Part shown: in pieces, positions 9,497 to 58,361 of the stretch
Position numbering within the stretch: position 1 is the stretch's first letter
Layout of the letters: each line of letters begins with the position of its first letter
Assembly (NCBI GenBank): GCA_963841915.1
Contig: CAWJEN010000006.1
Location: forward strand, 576,001-640,000
DNA from: an uncultured Planctomycetota bacterium
Lineage (GTDB): Bacteria; Planctomycetota; Phycisphaerae; Tepidisphaerales; Tepidisphaeraceae
Length of the DNA: 64,000 nucleotides
Direction: 5' to 3'
Position numbers and translations under genes: made by a program
Notes under the pieces: model-generated
Seen by the model: the letters and a program-made list of their open reading frames with translations, nothing else
What the model was told of the DNA's origin: nothing
Database searches by the model: none

Positions 9497-9555
9497 GCTT
9501 CATCTGTTGCGCCGCGGCGGCCAAGTGGGGGGCGGCGGTGGGGCCGATCGACCAT

Positions 9556-9571
9556 TGTTCCACGTGGAACA
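9556..9571. promoter_or_regulatory. parS (ParB-binding) site
   Basis: Perfect palindrome TGTTCCACGTGGAACA matching the chromosomal parS consensus. Confidence 0.9.
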
Positions 9572-9573
9572 TT

Positions 9574-9610
9574 CGCCGACCCTCGCCACGCGTCGTGGCG
9601 AGGGTCGGCG
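9574..9610. repeat. Perfect 17-bp inverted repeat between the two parS sites (possible bidirectional terminator)
   Basis: CGCCGACCCTCGCCACG-cgt-CGTGGCGAGGGTCGGCG, located between convergent genes. Confidence 0.8.
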
Positions 9611-9630
9611 ACGTTGGCGAGACCTCAGAA

Positions 9631-9646
9631 TGTTCCACGTGGAACA
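9631..9646. promoter_or_regulatory. parS (ParB-binding) site
   Basis: TGTTCCACGTGGAACA; palindrome extends to 20 bp (AA...TT, 9629-9648). Confidence 0.9.
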
Positions 9647-9804
9647 TTTTGCAGCTCCCAATCACGTCGGCGGTCCGTCGGCCTTCATGACAACTCAAAT
9701 GGCAGCACGAGATGAAACGCGTCTCTATTTAAACACGTGTCGTCGCTCGTGCTGACGTTTCCGTCGCCGTACGCGCTGCGCCGCGGCGGCCGCCTTTGGC
9801 GTCG

Positions 9805-10500
9805 TCACAATCCGAACTCGAAGCCCAGCGACAGGATCACCATGATGACGCCGAAGGTCGCGATCCACTGCAGTGCGATGAAGATGATCGCAAAGATCTG
9901 AGCGTCGTTGCCGTCCATGTCGAGCATGACGTTCAGGCTGACCATGAGCACCAGGACGTAGATCGCAAAGCTGAAGATGCCGCCGATCCCGACAATCCAT
10001 TCCACCGTCCACTCGGCCGTCAACGCCATCGTGCTGGCGGCGCAGAGCTGCAGGATCGACATCCAGATCGTCCCACCGACCCCGACACCGATCGACGCGG
10101 CAATGAATGCGGCAATAACAGCCACGACGGTATAGACGACGGTCAGAACGAGAAAAACGACCGCGAACAAAGCCATTCCCGCCGGGCCGTCCGTCGTCAA
10201 GCCCATCAGCAGGAACAACACCGCACTGACGCCGATACCGATGACCGGGACAAGCCACTCCTTTCGTGCAACGTCGGCGGCGACGTCCTGCTCCCACTGC
10301 TGCTTGTCCCGTGCCGCCGCCAAACGGTCACGTTTCGATGCGGGACTCTTGGCGTTCCTGTAGTTGAGCGTCGGTGCACCCACGGCAGACGCACCAGCAT
10401 CGGCCGACGCAACGACCCTGCGACGCGGTTTCGGTTTCGGTTTCGGCGCAGGCGCGTCGTCTTCTGCAAAGTCGTACAGGTCAGCAGAGTCGTCAGCCAT
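9805..10500 (-). CDS. Hypothetical multi-pass membrane protein
   Basis: Low-complexity N-terminus (DLYDFAEDD, PKPKPKP) followed by ~5 hydrophobic segments. Confidence 0.75.
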   Translation of the reverse strand: MADDSADLYDFAEDDAPAPKPKPKPRRRVVASADAGASAVGAPTLNYRNAKSPASKRDRLAAARDKQQWEQDVAADVARKEWLVPVIGIGVSAVLFLLMGLTTDGPAGMALFAVVFLVLTVVYTVVAVIAAFIAASIGVGVGGTIWMSILQLCAASTMALTAEWTVEWIVGIGGIFSFAIYVLVLMVSLNVMLDMDGNDAQIFAIIFIALQWIATFGVIMVILSLGFEFGL

Positions 10501-10750
10501 AATCGGCCGCGAGTGTGACGCGTCGCCTCCTGCAATTCAAGAATGATCTATCGAAGCACGATCCGCCCAGCCGTTTCGGCGGCTTAATTGGCACGGACAA
10601 GCTTCTTTATCAAATCAGCTTTGACCGATCGTTACGCCCAGCCCGGCGGTTGACGCCAGGTGTGCGGCCGTGCCGCCTGACAGTGCAGACTGCGCCCCAC
10701 CAGGTTCAACACCCAAGGCCCCAGGGCGAACAACAGTCGTGGCATCAGGC

Positions 10751-11791
10751 TCATTGAGCGGCTCCTTCAAGCAGGCGTTGCCGACGCTTGTTCATCGGCG
10801 GAATCGGGTGAAATACAAACTCCACGCCCGCCGCCAGCGACGGGTCGGGCAGGTTGCGGGTGGCCAGCTCGTCGAGCATGGCGACGGCGTCGTCACGGCC
10901 GAGCTTGTCGGCGGCAAAGGCGTCGGCGGCGTAGATCTGCCACTTGCCCAGCGACGGCCAAAGCCCCAGCAAGCCCAGCCAGCACCACGTGCTCATCGTC
11001 GCCGCCAGCACGACGACCACGCCGGCCGCGCCAAGGTCGTCGGCCGCAAGCCAGCCTGCCAGCACGATGCCACCCACGATCCAGCCGGCCGTGCACAGCA
11101 TCGTCACGAGGCGATGCCTCAGCCGCAGGTGCCCGACCTCGCGGGCGATCAGGCCGGCTGCGACGCGTGGTTCGACCTGCGCCAGCGACGTCGCCAGGAA
11201 CAACCGCCGAAACGGCCCGACGCCGTTCCACCCACCGGCCAGCGACCGCTCGCCGTGGTCGTACCAGCTCACCGCCGGCACCGGCAGGTTCATCGCTCCA
11301 AGCTCCGCCTCGACCCGTTGCCACCAGTCGGCATCGGGCGCGGGTGCCCGCTTCGTCGGTGACAGCGGGTAGACGACGTGGAAGAACGACAGCCCCAGCA
11401 GCAACACCACCGCCGGGAGCCACCACCACGCGCCGGCGAGTGCGACGGCGATGCCGACGAGCAGGCCTGCCGAGGCGATCCCGCCGAGCCACTGCATGAC
11501 GTGCGTGAGGTAGCGACCGATCAGGCCGCCGGACTGTCGCTGGCCGTAGGCGAGTTCGGTTCTGGCGGCGTAGTAGTCAGGCCCGGCCTGCAGCAACGCT
11601 GCCCCAATGCCGAGCAGCAGCGCGGTGAAGAAGCCGGCGAGCACCGTCGGGAGCTTTTCGAAGAGTCCGTCTGCCGCCCGCGGCAGCCCGAGGCCGACGG
11701 CCACCCACAGAAGCACCAGGATCAAGCCGATGCCCGTGATGCCGCACCAGAGCCTGATCCGCTGATAAGTCGTCGCATCCGGCCGCGTCAT
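10751..11791 (-). CDS. M48 (Ste24/HtpX)-like membrane peptidase homolog with degenerate zinc motif
   Basis: Multi-TM; G.G..RRLFL, then IAREVGH (for AHExGH), QIYAADAFA (for ExEAD) and HPIP....R. Confidence 0.7.
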   Translation of the reverse strand: MTRPDATTYQRIRLWCGITGIGLILVLLWVAVGLGLPRAADGLFEKLPTVLAGFFTALLLGIGAALLQAGPDYYAARTELAYGQRQSGGLIGRYLTHVMQWLGGIASAGLLVGIAVALAGAWWWLPAVVLLLGLSFFHVVYPLSPTKRAPAPDADWWQRVEAELGAMNLPVPAVSWYDHGERSLAGGWNGVGPFRRLFLATSLAQVEPRVAAGLIAREVGHLRLRHRLVTMLCTAGWIVGGIVLAGWLAADDLGAAGVVVVLAATMSTWCWLGLLGLWPSLGKWQIYAADAFAADKLGRDDAVAMLDELATRNLPDPSLAAGVEFVFHPIPPMNKRRQRLLEGAAQ

Positions 11792-11843
11792 CGGGCGAGG
11801 GTAGTGAAGGCCTGCCCATCACGTTTCAGGAAGAGCGGAGAGC

Positions 11844-12045
11844 CGGAGGAACGCAAAGGAGCGAAGAGGCGAAGAGCCGCGAAGGTCAGAGAAAGAAGAA
11901 AGGGCGGCGTGGAATATGATGACCGGCCACGCCTTATCCAGGTCCTGCGACGGGGGTTTGACCCGCGGATCACGCACTTCCGCCACAAACGGTCATCTCT
12001 TTGCCTTCGCGCACCTTCGTCTCTTCGCTTCTTCGCGTTCCTCCG
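11844..12045. repeat. ~200-bp element bounded by ~49-bp imperfect inverted repeats made of GCGAAGA-like units
   Basis: Left arm 11844-11892 CGGAGGAACGCAAAGGAGCGAAGAGGCGAAGAGCCGCGAAGGTCAGAGA; reverse complement of right arm 11996-12045 CGGAGGAACGCGAAGAAGCGAAGAGACGAAGGTGCGCGAAGGCAAAGAGA. Confidence 0.8.
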
Positions 12046-12084
12046 CCTCTGTACCCGCCTAAAATCTGGATCGTGGCTGCCGTC

Positions 12085-13197
12085 ATGAACAACTCGATCG
12101 CCCACCTCGTGCAGGCGATGCAGGCCATCGCCCCCGAGCGGTTGGCCGAGCCTTGGGACAACGTTGGGTTGCTGATCGGCGACGAGCATCAGCCTTTGAC
12201 GGGCGTGATGTTGTGCATCGATCTGACGGTGCCGGTGATTGATGAAGCCGTCGCCGCCGGGGCGTCGGCGGTGGTGGCGTACCACCCGCCGATTTTCAAG
12301 GACGTCAAGCGACTCACGCCCGGCCGGCCCGAGTCGGTCGCGTACGAAGCTATGGTCGCGGGACTGGCTGTTTATTCGCCGCACACCGCGCTCGACGTCG
12401 TACCCGGCGGCACGAACGACGTGCTGGCCGACCTGATTTACCTGACCGACCGCCGCCCGCTCAAGCCGAAGTCGGCGTCGCTGGCCGACGTCTACAAGCT
12501 CGTGACGTACGTTCCCGGCGATAGCGTCGAGACCGTCGCCGACGCACTATTTGAAGCCGGCGCGGGACATACCGGTGGCTACGACCGGTGCAGCTTCCGT
12601 TCGACCGGCACCGGAACCTTTCGAGGCGGTGAAGGCACCAATCCGGCCGTCGGTGAGCCGGGACGCGAAGAGCGCGTCGGCGAGACGAAGCTCGAAGTCG
12701 TTGTGCCCAAGTCTGTCGCAGGCAATGTCGTGGCAGCCTTGCGGTCGGCACATCCCTACGAAGAAGTGGCTTTTGATCTGCTGCGCGTGGCCGACGATCC
12801 GGAGGACGAGATCGGTTTAGGTCGCATCGGCGAGTTCGAAGAGCCGGTGCCGCGAGACGTACTGTTCGGCCGAATCCGCCGGGAGCTGGGCGTGAGTGAT
12901 CTGCTCGTCGCCGGTCCGTTGGAGGGTGAGGTGAAGCGCGTTGCTTTGTGTGCCGGCTCGTGCGGTGAATTGCTCGACGATGCGGCCAGGCTGGGGGCGG
13001 AGTTTTACCTGACGGGTGAGCTTCGGCATCACGACGCGGTGCGGGCGGCTCGCATGGGCGTAACGGCCTGCTGCGTGCTGCACTCCAACAGCGAGCGGCC
13101 GACGCTGGAGGTGCTGCGTTACAAGCTGAGTGAGGCGTTGCCTGGCGTGTCGATCGAACGGGCGGTGTCGGATGTCGATCCGTTCAGCCTGCGTTAA
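12085..13197 (+). CDS. Nif3-like dinuclear metal-centre protein (YqfO type with PII-like insert)
   Basis: AEPWDNVGL, YHPPIF, HTALD, GAGH.GGYDRCSF, HPYEEVAFD, TGELRHHD. Confidence 0.93.
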   Translation: MNNSIAHLVQAMQAIAPERLAEPWDNVGLLIGDEHQPLTGVMLCIDLTVPVIDEAVAAGASAVVAYHPPIFKDVKRLTPGRPESVAYEAMVAGLAVYSPHTALDVVPGGTNDVLADLIYLTDRRPLKPKSASLADVYKLVTYVPGDSVETVADALFEAGAGHTGGYDRCSFRSTGTGTFRGGEGTNPAVGEPGREERVGETKLEVVVPKSVAGNVVAALRSAHPYEEVAFDLLRVADDPEDEIGLGRIGEFEEPVPRDVLFGRIRRELGVSDLLVAGPLEGEVKRVALCAGSCGELLDDAARLGAEFYLTGELRHHDAVRAARMGVTACCVLHSNSERPTLEVLRYKLSEALPGVSIERAVSDVDPFSLR

Positions 13198-13282
13198 GTT
13201 CGATTTTGGTCGCGATCGGACTGTCAAACAGGCTGGAACCTGTTAGGGTTCGTACAACCACCGCCCAAACGGCGGAGTTCGT

Positions 13283-14824
13283 ATGACGACAAACATCCTT
13301 TCCCGAGAGAACGACATCAAGACACCCGACACCGCCGGCCGCAAGCCGGCCATGCGTATGGTGCGCGACGCTTCCATGTCTCAAGCTTCTATATCTACCA
13401 ACACGCCTCTGCGTCGCAAGAGCGACCCGATCCCGCAGATCATCGAGACGCCGCCTTTCGCTGATGCGCCGGCCGACGGTTATCGCGGGTACATCTGCAT
13501 GCTCAGCACGCACGGCTACGTGGCCTCGCAGCCGCAGCTGGGCCAGCCCGATACGGGCGGTCAGGTGGTGTACGTGCTGGAATGTGCCAAGGCCTTGCGC
13601 ATGCTCGGTTACCAGGTCGACGTCGTCACGCGTGGCTTTGCCGACCAGCCGGAAGTCGATGACATGGGCCACGGCTTGCGCGTGCTGCGGATCCGCTTCG
13701 GCGGCGACGATTTTGTCATCAAGGAAAACTTCCACGACATCGTCGATGAAGGGGCGACCAACTTCCTGAAGAAGATCAAGGCCGACGGCATCGAGTATGA
13801 CCTCGTCAGCAGCCACTACTGGGACGCGGGCGTGATCGGCCAGAAGGTTGCCGAGGCGATGGACATTCCGCACGTCCACACGCCGCACAGCATCGGCGCC
13901 TGGAAGCAGGAGCAGATGAACGGCGACAACACGCCGCCCGAGAAGATCAAGGAATACCGCTTCGAGGAGCGGATCGCCGCCGAGCAGCGGATGTTCGAGC
14001 AGTGCGCGCACCTGATTGCGACGACGCACCAGCAGGAGGACCGCTTCATGGAGTACTACGGGGTGGCCGACGAGAAGATTACGGTCATTCCTGCCGGTCT
14101 CGACGAGACGCGGTTCAAGCCGCTGGCCGACGAGAAGATCCCGGCGATCCGCGAGAAGTTCGGCTTCAAGGAGAAAGACATCATCGCGCTGGGTCGCATG
14201 GCCCGGAACAAGGGCTACGACCTGCTGATCGGAGCAATGCCGCGGCTGTTGGAGCTTGTGCCGGACGCGCGGCTCGTGCTGGCCGTCGGGCACAACGACT
14301 CAAAGCAGGATCAAAAGCAAATCGACGAGCTGCGTCGTTTGGCGGCGACGCTGGGCGTGACGCAATCCATCGTGTTCTACGGCTACGTGGCCGATGAAGA
14401 CCTGCCCGATGTCTATCGCGCCGCGGCCGTCTACGCACTGCCGAGCCGGTATGAACCGTTCGGCATGACGGCCGTCGAGGCGATGGCCTGCGGCACCGCC
14501 AGCGTCATCACGACCCGAGGCGGCCTCAAAGAAAGCGTTGAGTTCGGCCAGCACGCCTTGTGGGCCGACCCCGAACGCGAGGGCGAGCTGGCCTACTGCC
14601 TGGCGCTGCCGCTTTTGTATCAGCCGATCCGCGACACGCTCGAAGAAGAGGGCAGCAAGTGGGCCCGCAAGAACTTCGCCTGGCGGGGCATTGCCCGGCA
14701 GCAGCTTGATGTCTTCAGCCGCGACGACGTGCTCAACCGCAAGCTGCCGACCGGTGCGCCGAGGAAGGGTGCCAGCACCCGACTTCCTGCCAGCCGCAGC
14801 GGGGCTGGCGAGTTGCTGCGGTAG
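13283..14824 (+). CDS. mfpsA: GT4 glycosyltransferase, mannosylfructose-phosphate synthase / sucrose-phosphate synthase family
   Basis: STHGYV...LG..DTGGQVVYVLE, SHYWDAG, HTPHS.G.WK, LGR.A.NKGYDLLI, GYVADEDLPD.YRAA, RYEPFGMTA.EAMA; start may be further downstream. Confidence 0.75.
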   Translation: MTTNILSRENDIKTPDTAGRKPAMRMVRDASMSQASISTNTPLRRKSDPIPQIIETPPFADAPADGYRGYICMLSTHGYVASQPQLGQPDTGGQVVYVLECAKALRMLGYQVDVVTRGFADQPEVDDMGHGLRVLRIRFGGDDFVIKENFHDIVDEGATNFLKKIKADGIEYDLVSSHYWDAGVIGQKVAEAMDIPHVHTPHSIGAWKQEQMNGDNTPPEKIKEYRFEERIAAEQRMFEQCAHLIATTHQQEDRFMEYYGVADEKITVIPAGLDETRFKPLADEKIPAIREKFGFKEKDIIALGRMARNKGYDLLIGAMPRLLELVPDARLVLAVGHNDSKQDQKQIDELRRLAATLGVTQSIVFYGYVADEDLPDVYRAAAVYALPSRYEPFGMTAVEAMACGTASVITTRGGLKESVEFGQHALWADPEREGELAYCLALPLLYQPIRDTLEEEGSKWARKNFAWRGIARQQLDVFSRDDVLNRKLPTGAPRKGASTRLPASRSGAGELLR

Positions 14825-14826
14825 CG

Positions 14827-16635
14827 TTACCGCGTGATGGCGACCACCGCCAGATCGGCGTGTCGATTGGGTTCGTCCGTCACGCGCTGGCCCGTCGCAG
14901 AATCGAGATAAACCGCTTCCCGAACCGCAATGCCGAGCACTCGGCACAGGTCGAGGAAGTCGTCGATGCTCGGATATCTGCGGTTGGGCGAGTCGTACCA
15001 CTCGTGGCTGAAGGGGCCCGGGGCCTTGGGGCTTCGTCCCTCGGTCGCGAGCATGTCGCGCAACGGCTGCCAGGCAAAGTTGGGAAAGCTGACAATGCCG
15101 ATGCGGCCGACGCGAAGGACTTCACGCATCACGTCGGCCGTACGTTCGACGCTCTGCAACGCCTGGCTGAGCACGACGACGTCGAATTGATCGTCGGCGA
15201 AAAAGGTCAGAGGCTTGTTGAGGTCGGCGTCGATGACGTCGAGCCCGCGTTGTGCTGCGGCAAGGACATTGGCCGTCCGCACGTCGACGCCCGCGATCTT
15301 GGCATGGCCGCGATGTCGAAGCCGGTCGAGCAGTCCGCCGTCGCCGCAGCCCAGATCGAGAACACTCGCCGCCGGATCGATGAGCGACAGAATCACATCA
15401 TGATCAAGCCGGCCGGCGTGGAAGATGCTCGTGCTGGCGTGTTCGAGAGATGAACCCTTCTCGGAAGTTTTAGACGCCTCTGTGTTCTCGTCGACACTGC
15501 AGATGGACTGCACGAACCGCCCATATTGGTCGGCCTCGGCCGGTAAAAGGAACGCGTCGTGCCCGCCGTCGCTGGCGATTTCGAGGTAGCTCACACGCCG
15601 ACCCGCGCGGCTGAGACCTTCGACCATCTGGCGCGAGCCTTCCGGCGGAAACAGCCAGTCGCTACTGAAACTGACGACGCCGAATCGCGTGCGGTGACTC
15701 GTTTTCTCGGCAAAGACGTTGGCCAGTTCGTCGGCACTGCCGCCGATGTCGAAGCGGTCCATGGCGCGGGTGAGGGTCAGGTAGCTGTTGGCGTCGAAGC
15801 GTTCGACGAATTTGTCGCCCTGATGGGCGAGGTAGCTGCCGACGCCGAAGTTGGCCTCGAAGGATCGGGCAAAGTCGCCGTCGAGGTCTCGCGGTTGGTC
15901 GCGTTGCGGATCAAACTTGGCGGTCATGCCGTCGCGTGACAGGTAAGTCACGTGGGCGAGCATGCGGGCCAGCGCCAGGCCGACGCGTGGCTGCTCCGGG
16001 CAATCGTGGTAGTCGCCACCGTTAAAATGCGGGTCGCGAAGAATGGCATTTCGGCCGACGACGTCGAAGGCAAGGGCTTGAGCTGTCAGGCGTGGCCCGG
16101 TGGCGACCAGGCAGCAGGCGTCGAGCATGTCGCCGTGATCGACCGCCCACTGCAGCGCCTGCTGGCCGCCCATGGATCCGCCGACGACGCCGGCGAGGCG
16201 TCGGATGCCGAGATGTTCGACGAGTTTTCGCTGAACCGCGACGGCGTCGCGCTGCAGGATGTCGGGGAACATCGCGCCGTAGCGCTTGCCTGTTGCCGGG
16301 TCGACGTCGCCCGGGCCGGTCGTGCCGCTGCAACCGCCGAGCGTGTTGGAGCAGAGGACAAAGAGCTTGTCCGTGTCGAGAAACTTGCCCGGCCCGATGA
16401 CCAGATCCCACCAACCGGCCTGATCGTCTGGGCCATGTCTGGCCGCGTGTGAGTCGCCGGTAAGGGCGTGGCAGATCAGGACGGCATTCGTGCGGCCGTC
16501 GTCGAAATGGCGAAGGGTGCCCCAGGTCTCGTACCGCACGACAAGGCGCTCGATCGTGCCCCCGAGATCCAGCGTGAGCGCCTCGTTGCTTTCGAACGTG
16601 TGTGCGTGCTTCGGCTCTCTGCAGGCGGCAGTCAT
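14827..16635 (-). CDS. metX: Homoserine O-acyltransferase MetX fused to methionine biosynthesis protein MetW
   Basis: CHALTGD, GGSMGG, RFDANSY, GHDAFLL followed by a SAM-binding MetW domain (VLDLGCGDG, IVSFPNF). Confidence 0.93.
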   Translation of the reverse strand: MTAACREPKHAHTFESNEALTLDLGGTIERLVVRYETWGTLRHFDDGRTNAVLICHALTGDSHAARHGPDDQAGWWDLVIGPGKFLDTDKLFVLCSNTLGGCSGTTGPGDVDPATGKRYGAMFPDILQRDAVAVQRKLVEHLGIRRLAGVVGGSMGGQQALQWAVDHGDMLDACCLVATGPRLTAQALAFDVVGRNAILRDPHFNGGDYHDCPEQPRVGLALARMLAHVTYLSRDGMTAKFDPQRDQPRDLDGDFARSFEANFGVGSYLAHQGDKFVERFDANSYLTLTRAMDRFDIGGSADELANVFAEKTSHRTRFGVVSFSSDWLFPPEGSRQMVEGLSRAGRRVSYLEIASDGGHDAFLLPAEADQYGRFVQSICSVDENTEASKTSEKGSSLEHASTSIFHAGRLDHDVILSLIDPAASVLDLGCGDGGLLDRLRHRGHAKIAGVDVRTANVLAAAQRGLDVIDADLNKPLTFFADDQFDVVVLSQALQSVERTADVMREVLRVGRIGIVSFPNFAWQPLRDMLATEGRSPKAPGPFSHEWYDSPNRRYPSIDDFLDLCRVLGIAVREAVYLDSATGQRVTDEPNRHADLAVVAITR

Positions 16636-16700
16636 CGGGGTCGTGAGGGTAGCCGATCAACCGCGTTCCTATGGCGTCAGCAGCAGATCATCCCGCGCGA

Positions 16701-17615: not shown

Positions 17616-17647
17616 GGGCGAGGGTATGAAGCCAAAGACGCCTGACG

Positions 17648-17680
17648 AAAAACCGTCGCTCCGATGACTCGAAGCGACGG
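17648..17680 (-). terminator. Rho-independent terminator of the PEP-CTERM gene
   Basis: CCGTCGCT...AGCGACGG stem with a T-run following on the minus strand. Confidence 0.65.
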
Positions 17681-17711
17681 CCGGTTGTCAGAAGGTGTGC
17701 AGCCGATACGT

Positions 17712-18299: not shown

Positions 18300-18361
18300 G
18301 GATTCTCTATCCCCCGCTGTGGCCGGCGGGAAGTTTCTGAGCGCGGTCGCAGGCGACATTA

Positions 18362-18399
18362 CAAAACGGAGCAGATGGTTACAAGTCCATCTGCTCCGT
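18362..18399 (-). terminator. Rho-independent terminator of the GlcG-like gene
   Basis: Perfect 13-bp stem ACGGAGCAGATGG/CCATCTGCTCCGT, followed by TTTTG on the minus strand. Confidence 0.75.
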
Positions 18400-18424
18400 C
18401 AAATGACGAACTGCGTCCTTCGTG

Positions 18425-18949: not shown

Positions 18950-19056
18950 GACGGGACAGCATGTCACGAACCTCACGCCGCCGCAGCGGGTGAAGTTTGT
19001 GGGCCGGATCATCAAGCCGGAGCGTCCACCGCACCGAAGTGCGGGGCAGCTCCAAA

Positions 19057-19704: not shown

Positions 19705-22317
<2,613 letters not shown>

Positions 22318-22442
22318 ACCAATTCAGAAACAACCAGCGTGCCGGGATGGAACCTTGATTCAGGCCAGCTAACACCGATGGGTCGAATTGCGGGCTGCCA
22401 AACTGGCATAGATGTTGGAGCACAGAGCTCACCGCTTGTGGC

Positions 22443-24633: not shown

Positions 24634-24642
24634 TCGATCAAT

Positions 24643-49076: not shown

Positions 49077-49139
49077 TGGCGTCAATGAACCCGCAACGTG
49101 CCCTTGCCGCTGTATGAGTGCCCGATTTTGAGTGAACCA

Positions 49140-52100
49140 ATGTTTTCGAACCACCACCGCCCGCTGCTCGCCGTCGTTCTCGGCGCTGTCCTGCTTCTTG
49201 TCTTACCGGCGGCGGGGGCGCCATCCCGTGACTGGCGAGATACGCCGCTCGATGAGCTACGCGCGATTCCGGGCATCGATGTGGTGGAGGTGACCTTTGA
49301 CGGTCGCGAGCCGCAGGAACATGGCTTGGCTGTTCACGGGTCGCTGCCCAAGCCGCTCAAAGTCAGCTTCCCAAAGTCCGGGACGGAGATTGCTTGGGGC
49401 ACGCAGGCCAGTGCTGACGACCGGCCGTGGATGCGACACTTTCCGCTCGACATCACCGATGAAGCGTTTCGCGATGCCGATCACGCAGCCGTCGACATCT
49501 ACGTGACTTACCACTTGGCCGCCTGGTCCGGACTGCAGGTCGAGGCATCAACGTCCGAGGGCTTGAAGGTGGTCGACAACGGGTGGGGCAACACGTCGAA
49601 CTGGCGGACAGAATTCACTGCGGCGGACGATGTCGACTTCACCGCAGATGGGCCTCACCTGCGGGTCGCCGGGGCAAACGGAACCCTCTACATCAAACGT
49701 GTCCGACTCATCGGCTACAAGCGCAGCGGCCCGGACGTGCGTTGGGATCGCCTGTTGCGGCCACGGTCACTCGAGGCCGGTACGAGCGACGGCATTTTCG
49801 CTTTTGCGCCTGGTGAGGGACAAGCGCGTCTGGCTGTCGAGAATCTGGCGACGCAAGACAAGGACCTTGACTACACCTTCAGCATTTCGACGCTCGGCGA
49901 CGAATCGGTCGTGCACCAGTCGAGCGGGAAGGTGACGATCGGCGGGGCGTCGACGGAGTCGATCGACATGTCCTTCGACGCCTCGGACTGGAAGCTGGGC
50001 CCGTACGTCGGGTCGATCGTGGTCAATGACAGCGACGCAAGTGAGCCGATGCTTTCGCTGCCGTTGACGCTGGGCGTCATCGACGGCGAGACGCGACGTC
50101 TCGAACGCGCCCGCGGCAACGCGAGCTACTGGTTCGGCCTCGATGCGGCCAACAACGAAATATTCAAGACCGGCACCGACCAGTCGTTTGCCTACTACGA
50201 CCTGCTGGGCGTCGACATTCTGCGAGGCGTCCCGCATGCCAGCAAGGGCAAGGTGTCATCGGTCAGTCACATCTCGGACATGATGGGCAAGCTGGCCGAC
50301 CACGACATGCGCAGCGCCTACATCGCTTGGCCCGACGCGTGGCAGAAGAATGGGTCGGAGTACGAGAAGGATCGTGAGAAGCGGGTCGGAGCCCTCGCCG
50401 CCTTAGCCGCTGCCTACGGCGGCCGGGAACCCGGCAAGATTCCATACTTCGAGATCGGCAACGAGCCGGACCTGACCTTCTTCTACGGCCGACCTGCAAA
50501 GGACTACGTCGAGAGCTACCACATGGCCTACGACGCGATCCGCGACGCGGACCCGGAGCACAAGGCAATGGTGATGCACGGCGGCCTGTGCTTCCACGGG
50601 AGTGACGGTGACCGCCGGGCGCGCGAGATTATCCGCCTGACGGATCCGGACAAGGTCGATGTCTGGGCGTTTCATGGCCACGGTCCGGGCCTCGAATCTG
50701 AAAGAGAGGCCTACGAGCGGCATGTCGAGGCGGTCCGAAGCGAGGCCCAAGGCGACACCAACACTAATTTGGCCAAGCCGTTCCTGGAGACCGAAAGCGG
50801 CGTCAATCAGACTAACGCGGCAGGTATGGCCGAGCAGGCGCGGACAGCGGTAGAGAAGCAGCTGTACGCCATGAGCGTCGACATGCCGAGCTTGTACTAC
50901 TTCCGCCTGTACATGGAAGGTGGTGGCGATGCGGGTTACGGCATGACCCGCCGCATTGGTAGAGGCGACTTCAATCAACCGCTGCCCAGCGTTTTGACCT
51001 ACCGCCAACTCGTGCGGCGGCTTCGGCACACGCGATTCGTCAGCCAACTTCCGGTCGAGTCCGACGGCATCGTCGCATTTCTATTCGCACATGTCGACGA
51101 AGCCGGCCGCGACGACGGCACCAAGACGCTCGTCGCGTTCAACACCGATCCGCAGCAGACGACGCTGACGTTCCAGCTCCAGGAAGCGGGCGCGTCGATG
51201 AGGAACGAGCCCAATGCGTACGACATGTACGGCAACGGCTTCGAACTCAAGGCCGGTGTCGACAATGTCCGCGAACTGGATGTCGGGCCGGATCCGGTCT
51301 ATTTGACTTGGGCCGGCGACGGCGCGGTCGATGAGGTGCAAGCCCTGTCGCCGCTGCTGACGCTGGCCGATGCAAGCCAGCCACGCGTGCTGCTCGGCGA
51401 GGACAACGTGATCAAGCTACTCGTGGGCGGTAACGCCACGACAGTCGGTAAGGCGACCCTGTCCACGACGGCCACGGGCCGCATTGCCATGTCGGTCACG
51501 CCCGAGACGCAGCAGATTGATCTGGGCCAAGCTGGCGAGATCGAGCTGGTCGTGCGACCGGGCACGTCGGAGGCGCCGCTGAACGTGCCGACGTGGTGGA
51601 AGTCGTTCGTCGATGTCGACCTCGAACAACTCGAGGCCCAGCCGTCGTTGCTGGCCACCATCCCGAACACGCTGCCGAAGCTCGATGGCGGGCAGGTGAG
51701 CGGCTCACATATCAAGGGTGACGAGTCCAATCTCGTCGACTTCGATACCATCTCCACCGGTCGCAAGGAGAAGCGCCCGGCAGTGTCGTACGCAATTCTC
51801 GACTCGGCAGCAGACGCCACGGTGAAGGTCGGAGCACGGGCCGACTGGTGGATGAAGTGGTACCTCAACGGCGAAGTCGTCTACGACACGTTCGATCGAG
51901 GCAATCAGCACGGGACGGTGATCGACCACACCTTCGACCTGAAGCTGAAGGCCGGCCGCAACGTCATCGCCGTGATGGTCAAGAGCGGCATGAGCGGCTT
52001 CAACTTCACCCTTGCCGATGAAGGAGATCTCGCTTTGGCCCGGGGCGAGCTGGCGCCCGACACGGTGGCCGTGGACGTTCTTGACGAGTCGGGGTCGCTG

Positions 52101-52637
52101 CTGACCAAGGTGTACGTGCCGCTGGAGCTCGCAGCCGACGTGGCCGACCTGCAGGGCGTTCAGCCTCAAGACGTCGAAGCCTGGCGCAACATGGAACCCG
52201 TCGCTGTTCTGACGGACGAGGCTGTGTCCAACCCGCACTTGAAGCACCCGGACGCCACCCGTTGGTACAGCGGCTCGGATGACTTGTCGGCCGACGTCTG
52301 GCTGCTCGATGATGAGGAAGCAGACGCGACCCATGTCTTCGTCGAAGTCCGCGATGACGTCGCAAGCGCGGGAGACGCGGTGCGTGTGGTCATCATCAGC
52401 GACGCAGGTGAGACGCTGGTCGACGAGGCCCTCGACGTGCTCCGCACCGAGAAGAACAGCCTGATCTACCACCTGCCGATCTCGCGAAGCACGATGGCAG
52501 CGTCGCCGTTCCGGCTCAATCTAGAGGTGCAAGACCTCGACGACGGTGACGTAGGCGACGCCGCTTACAAGCAGATCGCAAGTTTCGGCTCGGTCAACAA
52601 CCCGGCCTTGGGTGTCCGATTCACGCTGCGGAAGTAA
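49140..52637 (+). CDS. Large secreted GH39-like (clan GH-A) glycoside hydrolase
   Basis: Signal peptide; FEIGNEPD, Y.AI...DP, D..AFH.H, FLETESG; C-terminal jelly-roll-like domains. Confidence 0.75.
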   Translation: MFSNHHRPLLAVVLGAVLLLVLPAAGAPSRDWRDTPLDELRAIPGIDVVEVTFDGREPQEHGLAVHGSLPKPLKVSFPKSGTEIAWGTQASADDRPWMRHFPLDITDEAFRDADHAAVDIYVTYHLAAWSGLQVEASTSEGLKVVDNGWGNTSNWRTEFTAADDVDFTADGPHLRVAGANGTLYIKRVRLIGYKRSGPDVRWDRLLRPRSLEAGTSDGIFAFAPGEGQARLAVENLATQDKDLDYTFSISTLGDESVVHQSSGKVTIGGASTESIDMSFDASDWKLGPYVGSIVVNDSDASEPMLSLPLTLGVIDGETRRLERARGNASYWFGLDAANNEIFKTGTDQSFAYYDLLGVDILRGVPHASKGKVSSVSHISDMMGKLADHDMRSAYIAWPDAWQKNGSEYEKDREKRVGALAALAAAYGGREPGKIPYFEIGNEPDLTFFYGRPAKDYVESYHMAYDAIRDADPEHKAMVMHGGLCFHGSDGDRRAREIIRLTDPDKVDVWAFHGHGPGLESEREAYERHVEAVRSEAQGDTNTNLAKPFLETESGVNQTNAAGMAEQARTAVEKQLYAMSVDMPSLYYFRLYMEGGGDAGYGMTRRIGRGDFNQPLPSVLTYRQLVRRLRHTRFVSQLPVESDGIVAFLFAHVDEAGRDDGTKTLVAFNTDPQQTTLTFQLQEAGASMRNEPNAYDMYGNGFELKAGVDNVRELDVGPDPVYLTWAGDGAVDEVQALSPLLTLADASQPRVLLGEDNVIKLLVGGNATTVGKATLSTTATGRIAMSVTPETQQIDLGQAGEIELVVRPGTSEAPLNVPTWWKSFVDVDLEQLEAQPSLLATIPNTLPKLDGGQVSGSHIKGDESNLVDFDTISTGRKEKRPAVSYAILDSAADATVKVGARADWWMKWYLNGEVVYDTFDRGNQHGTVIDHTFDLKLKAGRNVIAVMVKSGMSGFNFTLADEGDLALARGELAPDTVAVDVLDESGSLLTKVYVPLELAADVADLQGVQPQDVEAWRNMEPVAVLTDEAVSNPHLKHPDATRWYSGSDDLSADVWLLDDEEADATHVFVEVRDDVASAGDAVRVVIISDAGETLVDEALDVLRTEKNSLIYHLPISRSTMAASPFRLNLEVQDLDDGDVGDAAYKQIASFGSVNNPALGVRFTLRK

Positions 52638-52836
52638 GGCTGAAAAGAGCCGAAGCCACGAATGCCGTTGGAACCAAAGCGGGCACATAACGTGCAGCTG
52701 ACATACATTGTGCCCAATGCTATTGCATGCTTGCTCGTTCTATGTTAGCTTTAACCGGTCCGACCACACGCAACGACCTGAACGCTCGGGTAGCTCGCTG
52801 CGGACGGCCTTTAAGAAGATCCTGAGGAGGAAGCTC

Positions 52837-53766
52837 ATGTCTCGACTGTCCTATCTAACCCGCGCTCGCGGATTCACGCTGATCGAACTCCTCGTGGTCA
52901 TCGGGATCATCGGGTTGCTCTTGTCCATCCTGATTCCGACGCTCACAAAGGCCAAAGAGTCGGCCGTCAACGTCAAGTGCCTGTCAAACATGCGCCAGAT
53001 GGGCATGGTGCTGCACCAGTACGCCAGCGAAGATTCGTCGAGGGACTTCCCGATGTATGAGGCGTTCGGCATCGATCCTAAACTCTCGCTGGCGAAGCGG
53101 ACGAAGATCGATCCGAACACGCTCGGCGGATGGTCAGGCAGAATGAAGTTCCTGCCCAAGCTTCGGGAGGAAGGGTTCCTCCTCGACTTCGAGGTCGCCT
53201 TCTGCCCCAACGCCTGGGAGCAGGAGTTCGAGTACGTCGAGATCGGCCCCGATCAGTTCGAATTCAAGCACACCGGCCCGACGCCTGTCGATAAGCCGTT
53301 GTTCCACTGGACGCCCGCCTTCGCCCAGGGCGGCCCGGGCGGCATCGCACACCGCAGCCGCGGCGAGTACATGTACCTGGGCCCCGGCACGACCAACAGC
53401 GCCTGGGTCGAAAAGGTTGTCTCCAAGGAACTACTCGACCGCTTCCCGCACCAAGGGGTCAGGCAGCCGGGGCTCGATTCCTCGAATGCCAGCAACCGCT
53501 TGTGGTACGGCGTTCGATCCACCGGCCAACTCAATTCCATCGCGCTCTTCCCGTTCGCGGGCAGCGAAAAGAAGATCATCAATGCTGATTGGGGCAGCGA
53601 ATTGCTGCCACTGATGGGCGAAGCCGCCGTCGGCAACTACACCTCGACCTTCTTCGCTGGTCGTGCTCCGCATGGCGGTAACGAGGTCGGTACAACCAAT
53701 CAGCAACGTGACGGCACGGGCAACTACCTCATGGTCGACGCCAGTGCCTCCACGCTTCCCTTCTGA
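52837..53766 (+). CDS. Prepilin-type N-terminal cleavage/methylation protein (DUF1559-like)
   Basis: GFTLIELLVVIGII..L.SILIP.L..AKE.A....C.SN.RQ.G; C-terminal H...NYLMVD; GAGGAGG RBS. Confidence 0.9.
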   Translation: MSRLSYLTRARGFTLIELLVVIGIIGLLLSILIPTLTKAKESAVNVKCLSNMRQMGMVLHQYASEDSSRDFPMYEAFGIDPKLSLAKRTKIDPNTLGGWSGRMKFLPKLREEGFLLDFEVAFCPNAWEQEFEYVEIGPDQFEFKHTGPTPVDKPLFHWTPAFAQGGPGGIAHRSRGEYMYLGPGTTNSAWVEKVVSKELLDRFPHQGVRQPGLDSSNASNRLWYGVRSTGQLNSIALFPFAGSEKKIINADWGSELLPLMGEAAVGNYTSTFFAGRAPHGGNEVGTTNQQRDGTGNYLMVDASASTLPF

Positions 53767-53797
53767 GCCTCAGGCGACACTCGAGACCCATTAATGA

Positions 53798-53831
53798 AAC
53801 GACTCCGCCCGACGGCGGAGTCGTTCCTTTT
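53798..53831 (+). terminator. Rho-independent terminator (possibly bidirectional) between the pilin-like gene and nadA
   Basis: AACGACTCCGCC-cgac-GGCGGAGTCGTT followed by CCTTTT. Confidence 0.8.
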
Positions 53832-53852
53832 GTAGAGACTTCGCCTGTAGCG

Positions 53853-55007
53853 CTAGTCAACCACGGTCACCGCTGCCGCCGGTTGACTCTTGCCGACCGG
53901 GTTGCCGTTTCCGCGGAGCTCCAGCATGCGATCAAGGGCCACCATCGACCACTTGCGTGTCGCCGTGTCGACGCTGATCTGGTTCACCACATTTCCGGCT
54001 ACCAGCTCTTCAAGCACGTAACACAGGTGCGGCAAGTCGATGCGCGTCATCGTCGTGCACAGACACTGGCACTCGCTGAGGACAAAGATCGTCTGCTCCG
54101 GGTGCTGCTGCTTGAGCCGGTGGACGAGATGCACTTCGGTGCCGATCGCCCACACGGTTCCGGGCGGGGCGGCCCGTACCTGATCGACGATGTACGCCGT
54201 GCTGCCGGCCATGTCTGCCTTGTCGACGACCTCCTTCTTGCACTCCGGGTGAACAAGTACCTTCACCTCCGGATACTGCTCGCGAGCCTGATCGACGTGT
54301 TCCGGGCGAAACAGGGCGTGCACGCTGCAGTGGCCTTTCCAAAGCAGGAACGTCGCCCGCTTCAAATCTTCGGCCGTATTGCCGCCTAAATCTTTCCGCG
54401 GGTCCCACAGGACCATGTCGCGCTCCGGGTCGAACCCCATCGACGCGGCCGTATTGCGGCCGAGGTGCTGGTCGGGGAAGAACAGGACTTTCTGCCCCTT
54501 CGTCAGTGCCCAATCAAGCACGGTTCGCGCGTTCGAGCTCGTGCACACCGCGCCGCCGTGTTCGCCGACGAACGCCTTGATGTCGGCCGACGAGTTCATG
54601 TACGTCACCGGAACGACGGGCGGCTCGCCGCCGAACACCTCCGTCAGTTGCTCCCAGCATTCCTCGGTCTGATCCAGATCGGCCATGTCGGCCATCGAAC
54701 ACCCGGCCCCGAGGTCCGGCAGAAGCACCGCCACGTCCGGCCCGGTGAGAATGTCGGCCGTCTCGGCCATGAAGTGCACGCCGCAGAAGATGACGTACTT
54801 CGCCTCCTTCAGATCCGCCGCGAACCGCGACAGCTCGAACGAATCGCCTTGCTTGTCGGCAAATTCGATGACGTCGTCATGCTGATAATGGTGCCCGAGA
54901 ATGACCAGGTCATCGCCCAGCTGTTCCTTGGCTTCGGTGATGCGGAATCGCAGCTCCGGATCGGTAAGCTCGTTGTAAATCGACGGCAGCGGTCGTTGCC
55001 AGGTCAT
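53853..55007 (-). CDS. nadA: Quinolinate synthase
   Basis: ILGHHYQ, FCGVHFMAETA, AGCSMADM, TYMNSSA, CTSSNA, PDQHLGRN, CSVH, HPEC, C.C.TM.RI. Confidence 0.95.
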   Translation of the reverse strand: MTWQRPLPSIYNELTDPELRFRITEAKEQLGDDLVILGHHYQHDDVIEFADKQGDSFELSRFAADLKEAKYVIFCGVHFMAETADILTGPDVAVLLPDLGAGCSMADMADLDQTEECWEQLTEVFGGEPPVVPVTYMNSSADIKAFVGEHGGAVCTSSNARTVLDWALTKGQKVLFFPDQHLGRNTAASMGFDPERDMVLWDPRKDLGGNTAEDLKRATFLLWKGHCSVHALFRPEHVDQAREQYPEVKVLVHPECKKEVVDKADMAGSTAYIVDQVRAAPPGTVWAIGTEVHLVHRLKQQHPEQTIFVLSECQCLCTTMTRIDLPHLCYVLEELVAGNVVNQISVDTATRKWSMVALDRMLELRGNGNPVGKSQPAAAVTVVD

Positions 55008-55090
55008 GGGCATGCCCTTTTGTACGTCACCGGCATTAAAATGTGCAGCCGACGTCCGCTCGACGGGCCGGGCGGACATGAACCCTGTAC

Positions 55091-57031
55091 GTGCGGAACC
55101 TTCCCGAACAGTCTGACGACGCGGACCTGTTAAGGCAGTACGCACGGGATCGTGACGACGTCGCGTTTGCCCGCGTCGTCGCTCGGCACACGCGGGCGGT
55201 GCGGCACATTGCCTACCGGCACACGCACGACAACCACGCCGCCGACGATGTCACGCAGGCGGCCTTCATCGTCCTGGCCCGTCGGCCCAGGGCAGCCATG
55301 CGGTCGGCCAGGCGTCGCCGGACGGCGTTGCCTTGGCTGGCCAAAGTCTGCCGATACGCCGCCGGGAACTGGCGGCGCAGCGAGCGTCGCCGAAGCCGCC
55401 GCGAACAGGTCGTCGCCCGTGCCGACGTCTACCCCGACCCGACGGCCGGGCACGATCTGGCCGACGCAATTCGGTCTGCCCTCGCCTGCCTGCCACGCCG
55501 GGACCGCAGACTCGTCGAGCTTCGGCACGTGTCGCAGATGAGCTGGGACCAGGTCGCCCGCGAGGCCGGCACCTCACCCGACGCCGCCCGCAAGGCGACG
55601 TCGCGGGCGCTGGTTCGACTCCGTGAAGTGCTCGACCAACGCGGCGTGGTCACCGGAACGGCGGCCGTCGTTGCCGCACTCGCTCGATCCGCGGCGGCTT
55701 TACCCGTACCGCCTGCGACCGCCGCGTCGCTGGCCTCCTCCGTTTTACTCACCATGAAGATCAAGGCTCTTTCAACCGCCGCTCTCGCCACCGCAGCCAC
55801 GCTCGGCCTTGCCGCCAGCGTCTACGCGCTAGCTCCGGACAGTCCGCCGCCCGCCGCGACGCAGCCAATCGCCTCGTCAAAGCCGTTCGTCGTCGACCTC
55901 GGCGGCGGCGGAAGGCTCGAGGTGCTCTACGTCGCCGAGCACAAACCCGGCGGCCGCGTCTGGAACCCGGACGGCTCGCCGAGCGACCGCGAGCGGCTGT
56001 TCGCCGATGACGACGTGATCGAGAAAGGCGGCCTTTTAGAAGTCGCCGTTCGTGTCACAACGCCGGCGGGTCAGCCGTTCTTCACATACACGACGCAACC
56101 GACCGAAGCCGGCGTCGATGCCATCGAGAACTGGCGGTGGGGCGTCAACGAGGCAGTGCGTCAGCAACGCCAGCCGCTGCGCGATCGCGGCTTCGACCTC
56201 GTCGTTGTCGATCCCGCGGCAGACACTGAAACGGTCGCTATCAACACCACTGTGCCGCTGGGCGAATGGCAGGTGCTGCATCGATGGAACAACATCGGCA
56301 TCAGCGGCAACATGGACGCCAGTGCACGCGAGGCCGGCGGCATTGCGACGCCCGCCGCCGTCGGCACCTTCGCGAGTGACATGGCAGATGACGATGGCTC
56401 GCCGATGTTACAGACGCGGTGGTTCCTCGCCGACGCAGAAGCCTGGCAGCTCGACACCCGCGCCCGCCTGAGTGACGGCACGATGGTCGACATGGGCGAA
56501 GTCAGCTACTCCGGCTCCGGCGGGCACATCGGCGTCTCGACGCTGAAGGGCCATCACCGGGCGGCGGTCGAGTTCTTCGAGCTGATGGGCCGACCCAAAG
56601 GCGGCGTGTCGCTGAGCGGGCTGGCGGCTCGGCCGGACGTGGAGAGCGAACCGCTGGCCGAAGTCGACGAAGCGGCGACGCGCCCTGAGTCAGCGTGGCC
56701 CGAAGGCGGTCGGCCCAAGTTCGAGCAGGCGGTCGAGGTCGACGTCGAATATTTTAGTTGGTCCTTCTTCGCACTGCGGACGCAAGAGGCGATCGGCCTG
56801 CCCGTCGGCATCGACACCTACCTGCTCCGCGGCGCGGGGATCCGCGATCACGGCTCGACCGATGCGAAGTTCACTGCCGCCGCCGGTGACGACGTGCTCG
56901 ACACGCTCGATGCTGCCGTCAAACGGCACGACGAGCGCCTCGGCGTCATCTGGCAATCGGGCCGCTTCCTCATCACGCTCGACCCTGACCTGACGCCACC
57001 GCCGGTGAAGCCGGGCGAGTCGTACGAGTGA
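55091..57031 (+). CDS. ECF sigma-70 factor with TM segment and long C-terminal extension
   Basis: DDADLLRQY...D..AF...V.RH, ADDVTQAAF..L, region 4 L..LP...R; Ala-rich TM segment then ~400 aa extension. Confidence 0.85.
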   Translation: MRNLPEQSDDADLLRQYARDRDDVAFARVVARHTRAVRHIAYRHTHDNHAADDVTQAAFIVLARRPRAAMRSARRRRTALPWLAKVCRYAAGNWRRSERRRSRREQVVARADVYPDPTAGHDLADAIRSALACLPRRDRRLVELRHVSQMSWDQVAREAGTSPDAARKATSRALVRLREVLDQRGVVTGTAAVVAALARSAAALPVPPATAASLASSVLLTMKIKALSTAALATAATLGLAASVYALAPDSPPPAATQPIASSKPFVVDLGGGGRLEVLYVAEHKPGGRVWNPDGSPSDRERLFADDDVIEKGGLLEVAVRVTTPAGQPFFTYTTQPTEAGVDAIENWRWGVNEAVRQQRQPLRDRGFDLVVVDPAADTETVAINTTVPLGEWQVLHRWNNIGISGNMDASAREAGGIATPAAVGTFASDMADDDGSPMLQTRWFLADAEAWQLDTRARLSDGTMVDMGEVSYSGSGGHIGVSTLKGHHRAAVEFFELMGRPKGGVSLSGLAARPDVESEPLAEVDEAATRPESAWPEGGRPKFEQAVEVDVEYFSWSFFALRTQEAIGLPVGIDTYLLRGAGIRDHGSTDAKFTAAAGDDVLDTLDAAVKRHDERLGVIWQSGRFLITLDPDLTPPPVKPGESYE

Positions 57032-57100
57032 TGCCGAAGCCGACGAAGCGGCAGGCCGGTCATCGTGCTTCGTCGTGCTTGAACCGTTACGCTCTCTGGC

Positions 57101-58105
57101 GTGTCCCAGCCGCCGCCTGTTCCTGCACCTGCTGAGAATTGGTCCACCGGCATGCCGCAGCAGGTGGGGACGCTGGGGTATGCAAATTTCGCCGCGAAGC
57201 CAGCCATCGTAACGACGTTGTCGGTGCTGAGCATCGTCATCGGGTCGCTCGGCCTGCTGGCCAACGCGTGTGGCGTCGTTAGAGCGGCAGTCCTCATGTT
57301 CTTCATCGCCGTTGCGCCTGCGCCTGGTGGGCGACAGGCCTTCGGGTCCGTGGTTTCGACCCCGGCCGGGTCCATCAACCCTGTTGACGCCGCCATCATT
57401 GCCGATGCGTTTGAGCAGCATTTGCCCCTGTCAGCTGCCGACCGTGCCCGGTTGATCACGGCATTGCCTATGGCTGAAGTGCCACTGGCCCCGCCAGCGG
57501 GAAGCCAATGGTCGGTCGGCTGGGTTGAAACGCAGATTGAAGGCGGAAGCGCGCAGGCTCTATCCGGTGGCGCGGTGAGCACCTACACGATGAGCAACGG
57601 CGGAAGCGTGAGCATCGATCCCAATGTCATTAAGTTCATTGCCATCACGCCGAGAGGGCAGGTCAACATGACGATGGTAAGCAACGACGGCACGGTGACA
57701 GTCGGCGGGATTACTCCGGCCGGAGCTCCCATGGTGGGGGCAGGTGGCCGCTTCAAGGTAATGGCAACGCTCGGCGTGGAGGTGCTGGAACTGCTCTTAT
57801 CGGGCTGGCTGCTCATTGCAGGAATTCGCGGCGCGACGGGTCACCGCAGCTCGCTCACATGGCACCGTTAATGGGCCTGGTCTCGTCTGGCCGTCGGAGT
57901 CGTCGGTGCCGTCTTAATGATGAAGATGACGTGGAACCCGTTCGCCGGCTTGGTCTTGGGTAGTGGCTTGCCGGCCAATACTGCCGAGGCGCTGAAGACA
58001 GTTTTTTCTGGCGTCCTCGCATTCGCCTGGGCGGCGGCGTATCCGGTCGCGGTGTTGATCATGCTGCGGTCGACGCGGCTGCAGGCGTGGTACGGGAGAC
58101 CGTAA
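57101..58105 (+). pseudogene. Membrane protein interrupted by an in-frame TAA at 57869-57871
   Basis: The frame continues after the stop (WAWSRLAVGVVGAVL...) straight into ORF 57917-58105, completing further TM helices. Confidence 0.7.
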
Positions 58106-58216
58106 TCTGACTCGGCGTGACGCACCCGCACGTCACCAGCCCCGCAAACGGTGTCGCAGCGGGACAGAAACGCAAACGACGGCCGACGACCCGCCGACGC
58201 ACTCGGCGGAGCAAAA

Positions 58217-58232
58217 TGTTCCACGTGGAACA
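58217..58232. promoter_or_regulatory. parS (ParB-binding) site
   Basis: TGTTCCACGTGGAACA; 20-bp extended palindrome at 58215-58234. Confidence 0.9.
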
Positions 58233-58283
58233 TTCCGGCGGAGGTAAAAACCCCCGCCGCAGCACGCCAACGGGGTCGGCCGA

Positions 58284-58299
58284 TGTTCCACGTGGAACA
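58284..58299. promoter_or_regulatory. parS (ParB-binding) site
   Basis: TGTTCCACGTGGAACA. Confidence 0.9.
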
Positions 58300-58361
58300 T
58301 TTGGAGGTCACCGAGCCTTCGCCGCCCCCGTGCGCCGATTTGGCCGCCGCGGCGCAACAGA

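Follow-up and report, generated by a model that had tools for sequence, protein, structure and literature searches.

A genome-wide family of evenly spaced, polar parS units in an uncultured planctomycete may form a chromosome-wide ParB lattice

Chromosomal ParABS systems that load SMC, as in Bacillus subtilis, Caulobacter crescentus and Pseudomonas aeruginosa, are close described counterparts of the system considered here, combining a 16-bp parS palindrome, a canonical ParB, a ParA, SMC-ScpA and a cluster of sites linked to parB. In published accounts (PMC7333895, PMC5815017; see also PMC7022226), known parS sites are origin-proximal and number at most 20-23 (Streptomyces coelicolor, Listeria innocua), and extra sites are tolerated only within ~500-600 kb, distant insertions being poorly tolerated. 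The present analysis concerns a stretch of 64,000 nucleotides (the window) from an uncultured Planctomycetota bacterium of the Tepidisphaeraceae (GenBank GCA_963841915.1, contig CAWJEN010000006.1), which is C6:576001-640000 of the source genome, G000, of 3.63 Mb in six contigs (C1 to C6; 93.8% complete, 0.03% contamination). A first-pass annotation had drawn attention to two cassettes in this window, A and B, each with a pair of parS palindromes; they prove to be two of 64 units distributed over the genome. The parts present in G000 are those of a chromosomal ParABS system, whereas the sites, instead of clustering near the origin, lie on all five contigs longer than 100 kb, in polar, helically phased cassettes with one-sided satellite sites. 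With slightly better than even confidence, we read the units as a chromosome-wide lattice of ParB loading stations that would recruit SMC and fold domains of ~50 kb, a reading that draws on the number of units and their even spacing, on their polarity and helical phasing, on satellites that favour one side, and on site and ParB changing together between species.

In G000 the palindrome TGTTCCACGTGGAACA occurs 121 times without mismatch, 33 times with one and 21 times with two, against 0.001, 0.03 and 0.8 expected under an order-5 Markov model. Fifty-nine pairs of sites and five single-site or atypical units make up the 64 units, each of ~300 bp, on every contig except the 40-kb C2. The 154 sites with no or one mismatch are of uniform density across the five larger contigs, and the confinement to the origin that characterizes chromosomal parS is absent. 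All unit cores are intergenic (convergent genes flank 25 of them, co-directional genes 31 and divergent genes 8) by gene calls from an in-house script, whose coding and intergenic labels are approximate close to gene starts. The first-pass observations on the window stand: the four palindromes at 9556, 9631, 58217 and 58284 are perfect (0.26 matches expected at three or fewer mismatches), the two copies share an exact 22-mer and flank blocks, both span 181 bp and both lie between convergent genes. Their standing as a special pair does not survive, since the genome holds so many such pairs, and the 22-mer is found also at C5:739842; nor is an origin-linked centromere pair supported. The earlier observation is partly confirmed, being real and larger than first described, and the interpretation placed on it is partly supported.

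The distribution of the units along the chromosome is markedly regular. The 59 gaps average 54 kb (range 11-130 kb) with a coefficient of variation (CV) of 0.53, where chance gives 0.96, and equal evenness was reached in none of 20,000 uniform and none of 5,000 gene-boundary simulations. Along C5 and C6 every one of 12 full or near-full 250-kb bins holds 4-5 units, and units occur also on C1, C3 and C4. Such spacing would suit serial segregation, and true holocentric segregation, in which each unit is a small centromere moved by ParA after replication and SMC is of minor importance, draws on the same sequence evidence as the loading lattice; it does not by itself explain the orientation-dependent gaps described below, and we regard it as improbable. 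A second alternative, a selfish repeat resembling repetitive extragenic palindromes (REP) or miniature inverted-repeat transposable elements (MITE), would have taken parS from the parB locus and spread, with ParB binding incidental or tolerated. The five REP families of G000 are spaced randomly or clumped (CV 0.79-2.22). The plain REP/MITE carrier offered in the first-pass annotation is not supported as the main explanation, the units being more even than random and than these families, and we consider the selfish repeat distinctly unlikely overall.

Each unit is polar, running from an end termed L to an end termed T. Adjacent units point in opposite directions in 32 of 59 cases, as in a random series, and A and B were rejected as a dedicated inverted pair on this ground and on the recurrence of their 22-mer. 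No tie of orientation to replichore or to local gene direction was seen. Gaps faced by T ends average 77 kb (n=14) against 42 kb for those faced by L ends (n=18; permutation p=0.0015), and spacing is most even when the unit centre is moved 9 kb towards T (a best-fit offset, p=0.0007). These gaps and this offset suggest that the reach of a unit is tens of kb and is greater on its T side. Units show no link to strongly biased genes (p about 0.18). Multiple replication origins were considered and rejected, none of 30 DnaA boxes lying near a unit.

Read from its L end, a unit has L (TGCGC-N3-GGCGGCC), then parS sites 1 and 2 with an ACCC-N19-GGGT dyad between them, then R (TGCGTCGGCGGGTCGT), a spacer of ~95 bp and finally T, in which L-like halves form a dyad about GCGGCCGC. 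Among the units with motifs inside the mismatch limits (45-61 of 64, depending on the tally), distances vary in steps of 10-11 bp, about one helical turn: 36-40, 47-49 or 56-58 bp from L to site 1; 96-99, 106-108, 117 or 127-128 bp from site 1 to R; 104-106 or 113-116 bp from R to T; and 248-251, 257-262 or 268-272 bp from L to T. The equal 181-bp spans of A and B reflect the commonest L-to-R distance, which is 154-156 bp in 32 of 55 units; as a boundary, however, 181 bp falls short, since T lies 104-116 bp beyond R in 49 of 64 units, copy A included. Of the occurrences of the L core in the genome, 98 are in units and 9 are not. The R-T spacer retains 32% identity between copies (n=17; 26% when shuffled), and a phased signal of AA/TT, with z of 8-9 at 10.5 bp, is confined between L and T. 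Helical-step distances and phased signal point to the units behaving as protein-bound, bent or wrapped duplex DNA and not as RNA structure, and the flanks have the appearance of a binding scaffold for a second factor, as had been suggested. In G000 the outer arm of T repeats L imperfectly in inverted orientation, as the ends of a selfish repeat might; against that account, the spacers have decayed while the sites are perfect, insertions and deletions come in whole turns, and no T end was seen in the units of the congener G004. Stretches with L/T motifs, or with R and its spacer, but lacking a good parS occur at C5:586859, C5:615760, C5:679556, C6:1187149, C5:1030757, C6:1183781 and C3:172977, several of them inside the longest gaps, and are possibly decayed or nascent units.

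A structured RNA or terminator between convergent genes is another explanation, in keeping with the strong folding of copy A (z -5.4) and with the enrichment of units at convergent gene ends (25 of 64 units against 79 of 580 gaps, p=4e-8), a preference that also suits a selfish repeat. The inter-site hairpin noted in the window is real in copy A and weak in copy B (z -2.3 / -0.4), yet the family as a whole does not share it: folding exceeds chance (z below -2) in only 9 of 59 copies and not in the other 50, and in a covariation test of 29 of the 59 copies the arms paired no better within than between copies (2.48 versus 2.90 of 7). No Rfam match near the gathering score and no terminator-like site was found for the units, and a hairpin or small RNA was rejected on these results; the distances, moreover, change in helical turns. 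Pairing of L with T as RNA was likewise not supported (N3 complementarity 1.29 versus 1.14 of 3, n=35, p=0.06). The RNA account is almost certainly wrong.

Bacterial interspersed mosaic elements (BIME-2) with strong gyrase sites, as described in PMC6379681, resemble the units in being dispersed intergenic repeats with a 10.5-11-bp periodic signal over 100-130 bp, the gyrase motif itself covering 130 bp with a 10.75-bp period. BIMEs consist of hairpin REPs that are not known to be evenly spaced or parS-bearing, and gyrase sites have nothing like the long, invariant L, R and T motifs; in G000 the units show neither a conserved hairpin nor the repeat flanking a REP-associated tyrosine transposase (RAYT) that would define REP/BIME. 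Two Y1/RAYT-type transposases are present (C6:1463088, C3:48278; one in a 1,365-codon open frame) and could be claimed for a selfish repeat, yet they have REP families of their own, and the REPs beside them are unrelated to L, R and T. As a binder of L, R and T, gyrase is a candidate, though an unlikely one. An extra type IIA topoisomerase was rejected (one GyrA-type gene, as in most relatives, and no ParC), as was a histone partner, the HMf-type histone (PF00808) being found in 0 of 20 genomes searched.

The satellite sites suggest selection acting outside the cassettes. Of 51 non-unit sites at two or fewer mismatches, 43 lie on the L side of a unit, 4 on the T side (all in the parB cluster) and 4 elsewhere; with the parB locus left out, as in the binomial test, 41 of 41 are on L. 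L-side satellites are 0.3-3.0 kb from their unit, and the median of 1.4 kb is on the scale of the ~2 kb over which Caulobacter ParB spreads from one site (PMC5815017). With up to three mismatches allowed, 43 of 64 units have a satellite. The scaffold is missing at satellites (L at 0 of 43, R at 1 of 43), and 17 of 43 lie inside coding sequence, in all three frames. The satellite in miaA occupies the same codons in G000, which reads MFRVEH, and in G004, which reads ALRVEL, each with its own variant, and was found in 0 of 12 other relatives. The simplest reading of the satellites is selection for ParB sites on one side, since a mobile element cannot place them within genes such as miaA; their origin outside the element, which in MiaA entailed altered amino acids, counts against the selfish repeat.

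A single ParB_N gene is present in G000 (C5:833353-834327). The densest cluster of sites surrounds it, and one unit lies directly downstream, where a selfish repeat could have acquired its parS. The protein has a helix-turn-helix, a GERR sequence that we take to be the CTPase motif and an N-terminal LGRGL peptide, presumably the one that stimulates ParA; its best PDB matches are Spo0J/ParB. Redeployment of this ParB in a Noc-like or regulatory role, whether marking the nucleoid against division or budding or insulating or silencing neighbouring genes, would be in line with the dispersed layout of Noc and its binding sites (NBS) in Firmicutes, where a ParB-family clamp has also undergone a specificity shift through its recognition helix (PMC7383237, PMC7333895). 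P. aeruginosa ParB acts as a genome-wide nucleoid organizer at hundreds of half-parS heptamers (PMC5961200), and parS sites match chromatin frontiers in Neisseriaceae (10.64898/2026.07.20.739713); the former sites are 7-bp half-sites, whereas those of G000 are full, paired and scaffolded palindromes at even spacing. However, the G000 protein has no paralogue, scores 198 bits against the Noc model TIGR04285 (cut-off 315; R at the R173-equivalent position), keeps the ParA-type peptide and has its sites in composite cassettes. No region of the chromosome is spared, and no difference in codon bias or direction was seen between the genes on the two sides of a unit. A Noc-like role is in our view a poor prospect.

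Next to parB, G000 and G002 carry the canonical palindrome, G004 has GCGCTCCACGTGGAGCGC, and G001 and G003 mostly show GCACCACGTGGTGC; the ParB recognition helix reads ERTSVANY in G000, ERATVNNH in G004 and DRGTVNAH in G001 and G003. Three parS 'dialects' within one genus are matched by changes in the recognition helix, a co-variation that rests on three related genomes and not on independent trials. These changes fall at about positions 174, 177 and 178 (mapped by eye), not at the four ParB-to-Noc switch residues, and lie outside the known path from ParB to Noc. G004 has 44 sites of its variant, at its parB and in units; of 24 stretches examined, 20 are units that carry L, their distances stepping at 52/62 and 64/74 bp and their downstream arm being phased, and its satellites number 9 on L against 1 on T. 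G003 has at least 7 L-bearing units with its own variant, L lying 176-198 bp from two abutting sites (6 measured), and as geometry can differ in this way, counts in relatives are lower bounds. Only 4 exact sites were found in G001 (80% complete). G002 has two canonical sites and, despite its canonical ParB, one unit of the G004 type (C57:4503-4590), which may reflect bin contamination (4%) or transfer. Among orthologues flanking G004 units, 25 of 79 lie within 3 kb of a G000 unit, where 12% would be expected. Close relatives for an empty-site analysis gave 0 matches in JGI metagenomes, and G004 is too diverged. An exact scan of GTDB for the L core with two sites, the source genome left out, returned 12 single loci, 9 of them beside a parB homologue with the same palindrome.

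Judged from these sequences, the unit family is old, its positions turn over and its sites follow ParB. Turnover of positions between species could be expected of a selfish repeat; sites that track ParB specificity count against one. The first-pass annotation had held that copies scattered genome-wide would signify a generic repeat, and they are so scattered, yet the even spacing, satellites arisen separately in unrelated genes and a palindrome that changes with ParB between species argue otherwise. The selfish repeat is largely disfavoured as the reason the units are kept, and may still be how they spread.

Expansion of parS on this scale is rare among relatives. Matches to the 12-bp core number at most 20 in 393 of 400 other genomes of the class, against 163 in G000 (G006 enters these tallies only, as a low-count genome), the outliers being G043 (116), G407 (75), G004 (46), G066 (31), G218 (29), G083 (29) and G334 (24, control 12). 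Among 400 genomes of the phylum the next highest count is 26 against 155. In the outliers inspected the sites occur on many contigs with unrelated flanks and scaffolds, which suggests repeated origins of parS expansion in the class; their assemblies are too fragmented for spacing to be judged. Independent canonical expansions with other flanks were seen in G043, G407, G083, G066, G218 and G032. The copies in G043 lie within near-identical repeats, with a ~90-bp upstream block and REP-like hairpins, a case that can be cited for the selfish repeat.

Other partition machinery is present in G000. SMC is encoded by a 1,197-codon open frame, scores above the family cut-off and has intact ATPase motifs; a ScpA gene is present; and a ParA ATPase with an intact deviant Walker A motif lies at C1:88887, away from parB, so that loss of ParA was rejected. 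An intact ParA, the retained LGRGL peptide and the highly diverged SMC of the genus would all favour holocentric segregation by ParA, although ParA is alike in relatives with and without the lattice, and distant parS together with ParA is harmful in Caulobacter and Pseudomonas (PMC5815017, PMC7333895). The parA, parB and dnaA genes are on three different contigs. Two dnaA genes lie on C6 (C6:371843, C6:510955), the former at 7 kb from an orphan ParA-like gene (C6:379336), and a further ParA-like ATPase at C6:204737, conserved in the genus, has a C-terminal extension that by eye resembles a glycogen-binding domain.

The loading lattice can be described as a sequence of steps of unequal certainty. 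ParB very probably binds at the sites, and with equally high confidence the single ParB of G000 is predicted to bind both sites of each unit and load as a CTP clamp. It is fairly likely that a second protein would bind L, R and T on one helix face and bend or wrap 260-270 bp, making the unit polar. Whether ParB would then slide mainly off the L side, the satellite ~1.4 kb away reloading or bounding the ParB-coated patch, is evenly balanced, and the same even chance is given to ParB patches loading SMC-ScpAB, with each unit serving a domain centred ~9 kb to its T side. Units may spread by copying or conversion and turn over, with selection editing positions; we propose that they stay evenly spread because each serves a domain, so that selection would hold the spacing. 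Distant parS is reported to load SMC in engineered multi-parS B. subtilis (10.1101/2020.10.26.356329) and distal parS coincides with chromatin boundaries in Neisseriaceae symbionts (10.64898/2026.07.20.739713), although these are a handful of sites, engineered or few and natural, and not a 64-unit lattice. That a functional ParB lattice covers the chromosome, a claim common to this reading and the first two alternatives raised above, is probable to a good degree.

Several observations weigh against the loading lattice. A distant second parS cluster is harmful in Caulobacter (PMC5815017), and the lattice would consequently need ParA pulling to be tamed. SMC is 42% identical between G000 and G004, where MiaA is 68% identical; SMC and ScpA are unusually divergent in the genus and faster-evolving than in sister genera, with coiled coil and hinge 17-39% identical between congeners, which could be decay or adaptation. 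This divergence does not track the lattice, being seen in G001, with almost no dispersed sites, and not in G407, with 75, and the SMC step is weak for that reason (the SMC tree was made without G407, G002, G030 and G043). T is not clear in 15 of 64 units and a satellite is absent in 21 of 64; most unit positions differ between G004 and G000, with ~4 of 21 G004 units in a shared slot; five gaps between contigs are unseen; and the origin was not located in G000, which has weak GC skew, two dnaA genes and no DnaA-box cluster. As a separate observation, smc has a frame break near its start in G001 and was not found in G002 (89% complete).

Within the window (Table 1), unit A fills the gap between a GGDEF response-regulator gene (end 9496) and a convergent gene (end 9805). 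Its probable satellite is weaker than most, three-mismatch sites numbering 19 genome-wide against ~12 expected by chance. An operon of histidine kinase, response regulator and receiver-GGDEF genes (6458-9496) ends 12 bp before the L motif of unit A, and the satellite is just upstream of this operon. Elsewhere, positions 14827-16635 encode an alpha/beta hydrolase (MetX-like) fused to a MetW methyltransferase domain.

Table 1. Features of the two parS units in the window (window positions).
Feature	Position	Strand	Remarks
Probable satellite parS of unit A	6319..6334	.	3 mismatches, 12-bp core intact; 3.2 kb off the L side
Unit A, complete polar cassette L-S1-S2-R-T	9505..9802	+	
L motif of unit A (TGCGC-N3-GGCGGCC)	9508..9522	+	48 bp ahead of site 1; shared with congeners G003 and G004
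parS site 1 of unit A, perfect palindrome	9556..9571	.	
Inter-site spacer of unit A, ACCC-N19-GGGT dyad	9572..9630	+	Hairpin in copy A, not in most copies
parS site 2 of unit A, perfect palindrome	9631..9646	.	
R motif of unit A	9663..9678	+	4 mismatches versus family consensus; 107 bp after start of site 1
R-T spacer of unit A	9679..9776	+	Poorly conserved sequence, fixed length class, 10.5-11-bp phased AA/TT signal
T motif of unit A, dyad of L-like half-sites flanking GCGGCCGC	9777..9802	+	Not in first-pass annotation
Unit B, L-S1-S2-R	58186..58359	-	No recognizable T motif, no satellite; L towards nuoB end (58410)
L motif of unit B	58342..58356	-	57 bp ahead of site 1, one helical turn more than unit A
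parS site 1 of unit B	58284..58299	.	
parS site 2 of unit B	58217..58232	.	
R motif of unit B, exact consensus	58186..58201	-	

Composite and repeated centromeres are each known from other settings. The parS of plasmid P1, a single site, has ParB boxes flanking an IHF bend, a composite and helically phased centromere with a second protein, and eukaryotic holocentromeres place centromere units along the whole chromosome by means of CENP-A nucleosomes and spindles. The units of G000 resemble the former in composite phasing and the latter in repetition. The system is a variant of ParABS that uses known parts, lacks origin proximity and falls outside Noc, REP/BIME and structured RNA. No description of an evenly spaced, chromosome-wide parS lattice was found in full-text literature searches, outside which lay most subscription papers and supplementary tables, where dispersed sites may be listed. 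On our preferred reading the lattice is a bacterial analogue of holocentric organization, probably serving ParB-SMC loading. A fuller picture, to which we give somewhat less than even weight, is of a holocentric-like chromosome with ~64 oriented centromere units, one every ~54 kb, each a wrapped scaffold for a second protein that would make loading one-sided, much as oriented CTCF does for cohesin; the lattice, in-gene sites included, would be rewritten as ParB specificity drifts, and the design would have arisen several times in the class.

G000 breaks, 64 times over, a working rule that places parS close to the origin and treats remote copies as harmful, and the regularity, polarity and co-evolution of the units point to selection. 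If ParB occupies the sites, the bacterium would have natural, sequence-programmed loop domains along its whole chromosome. The system opens to testing why parS clusters, what limits the pulling by ParA and whether one-sided loading of SMC is achievable, and the genus offers a natural series of ParB-parS specificity shifts at a site usually treated as near-universal.

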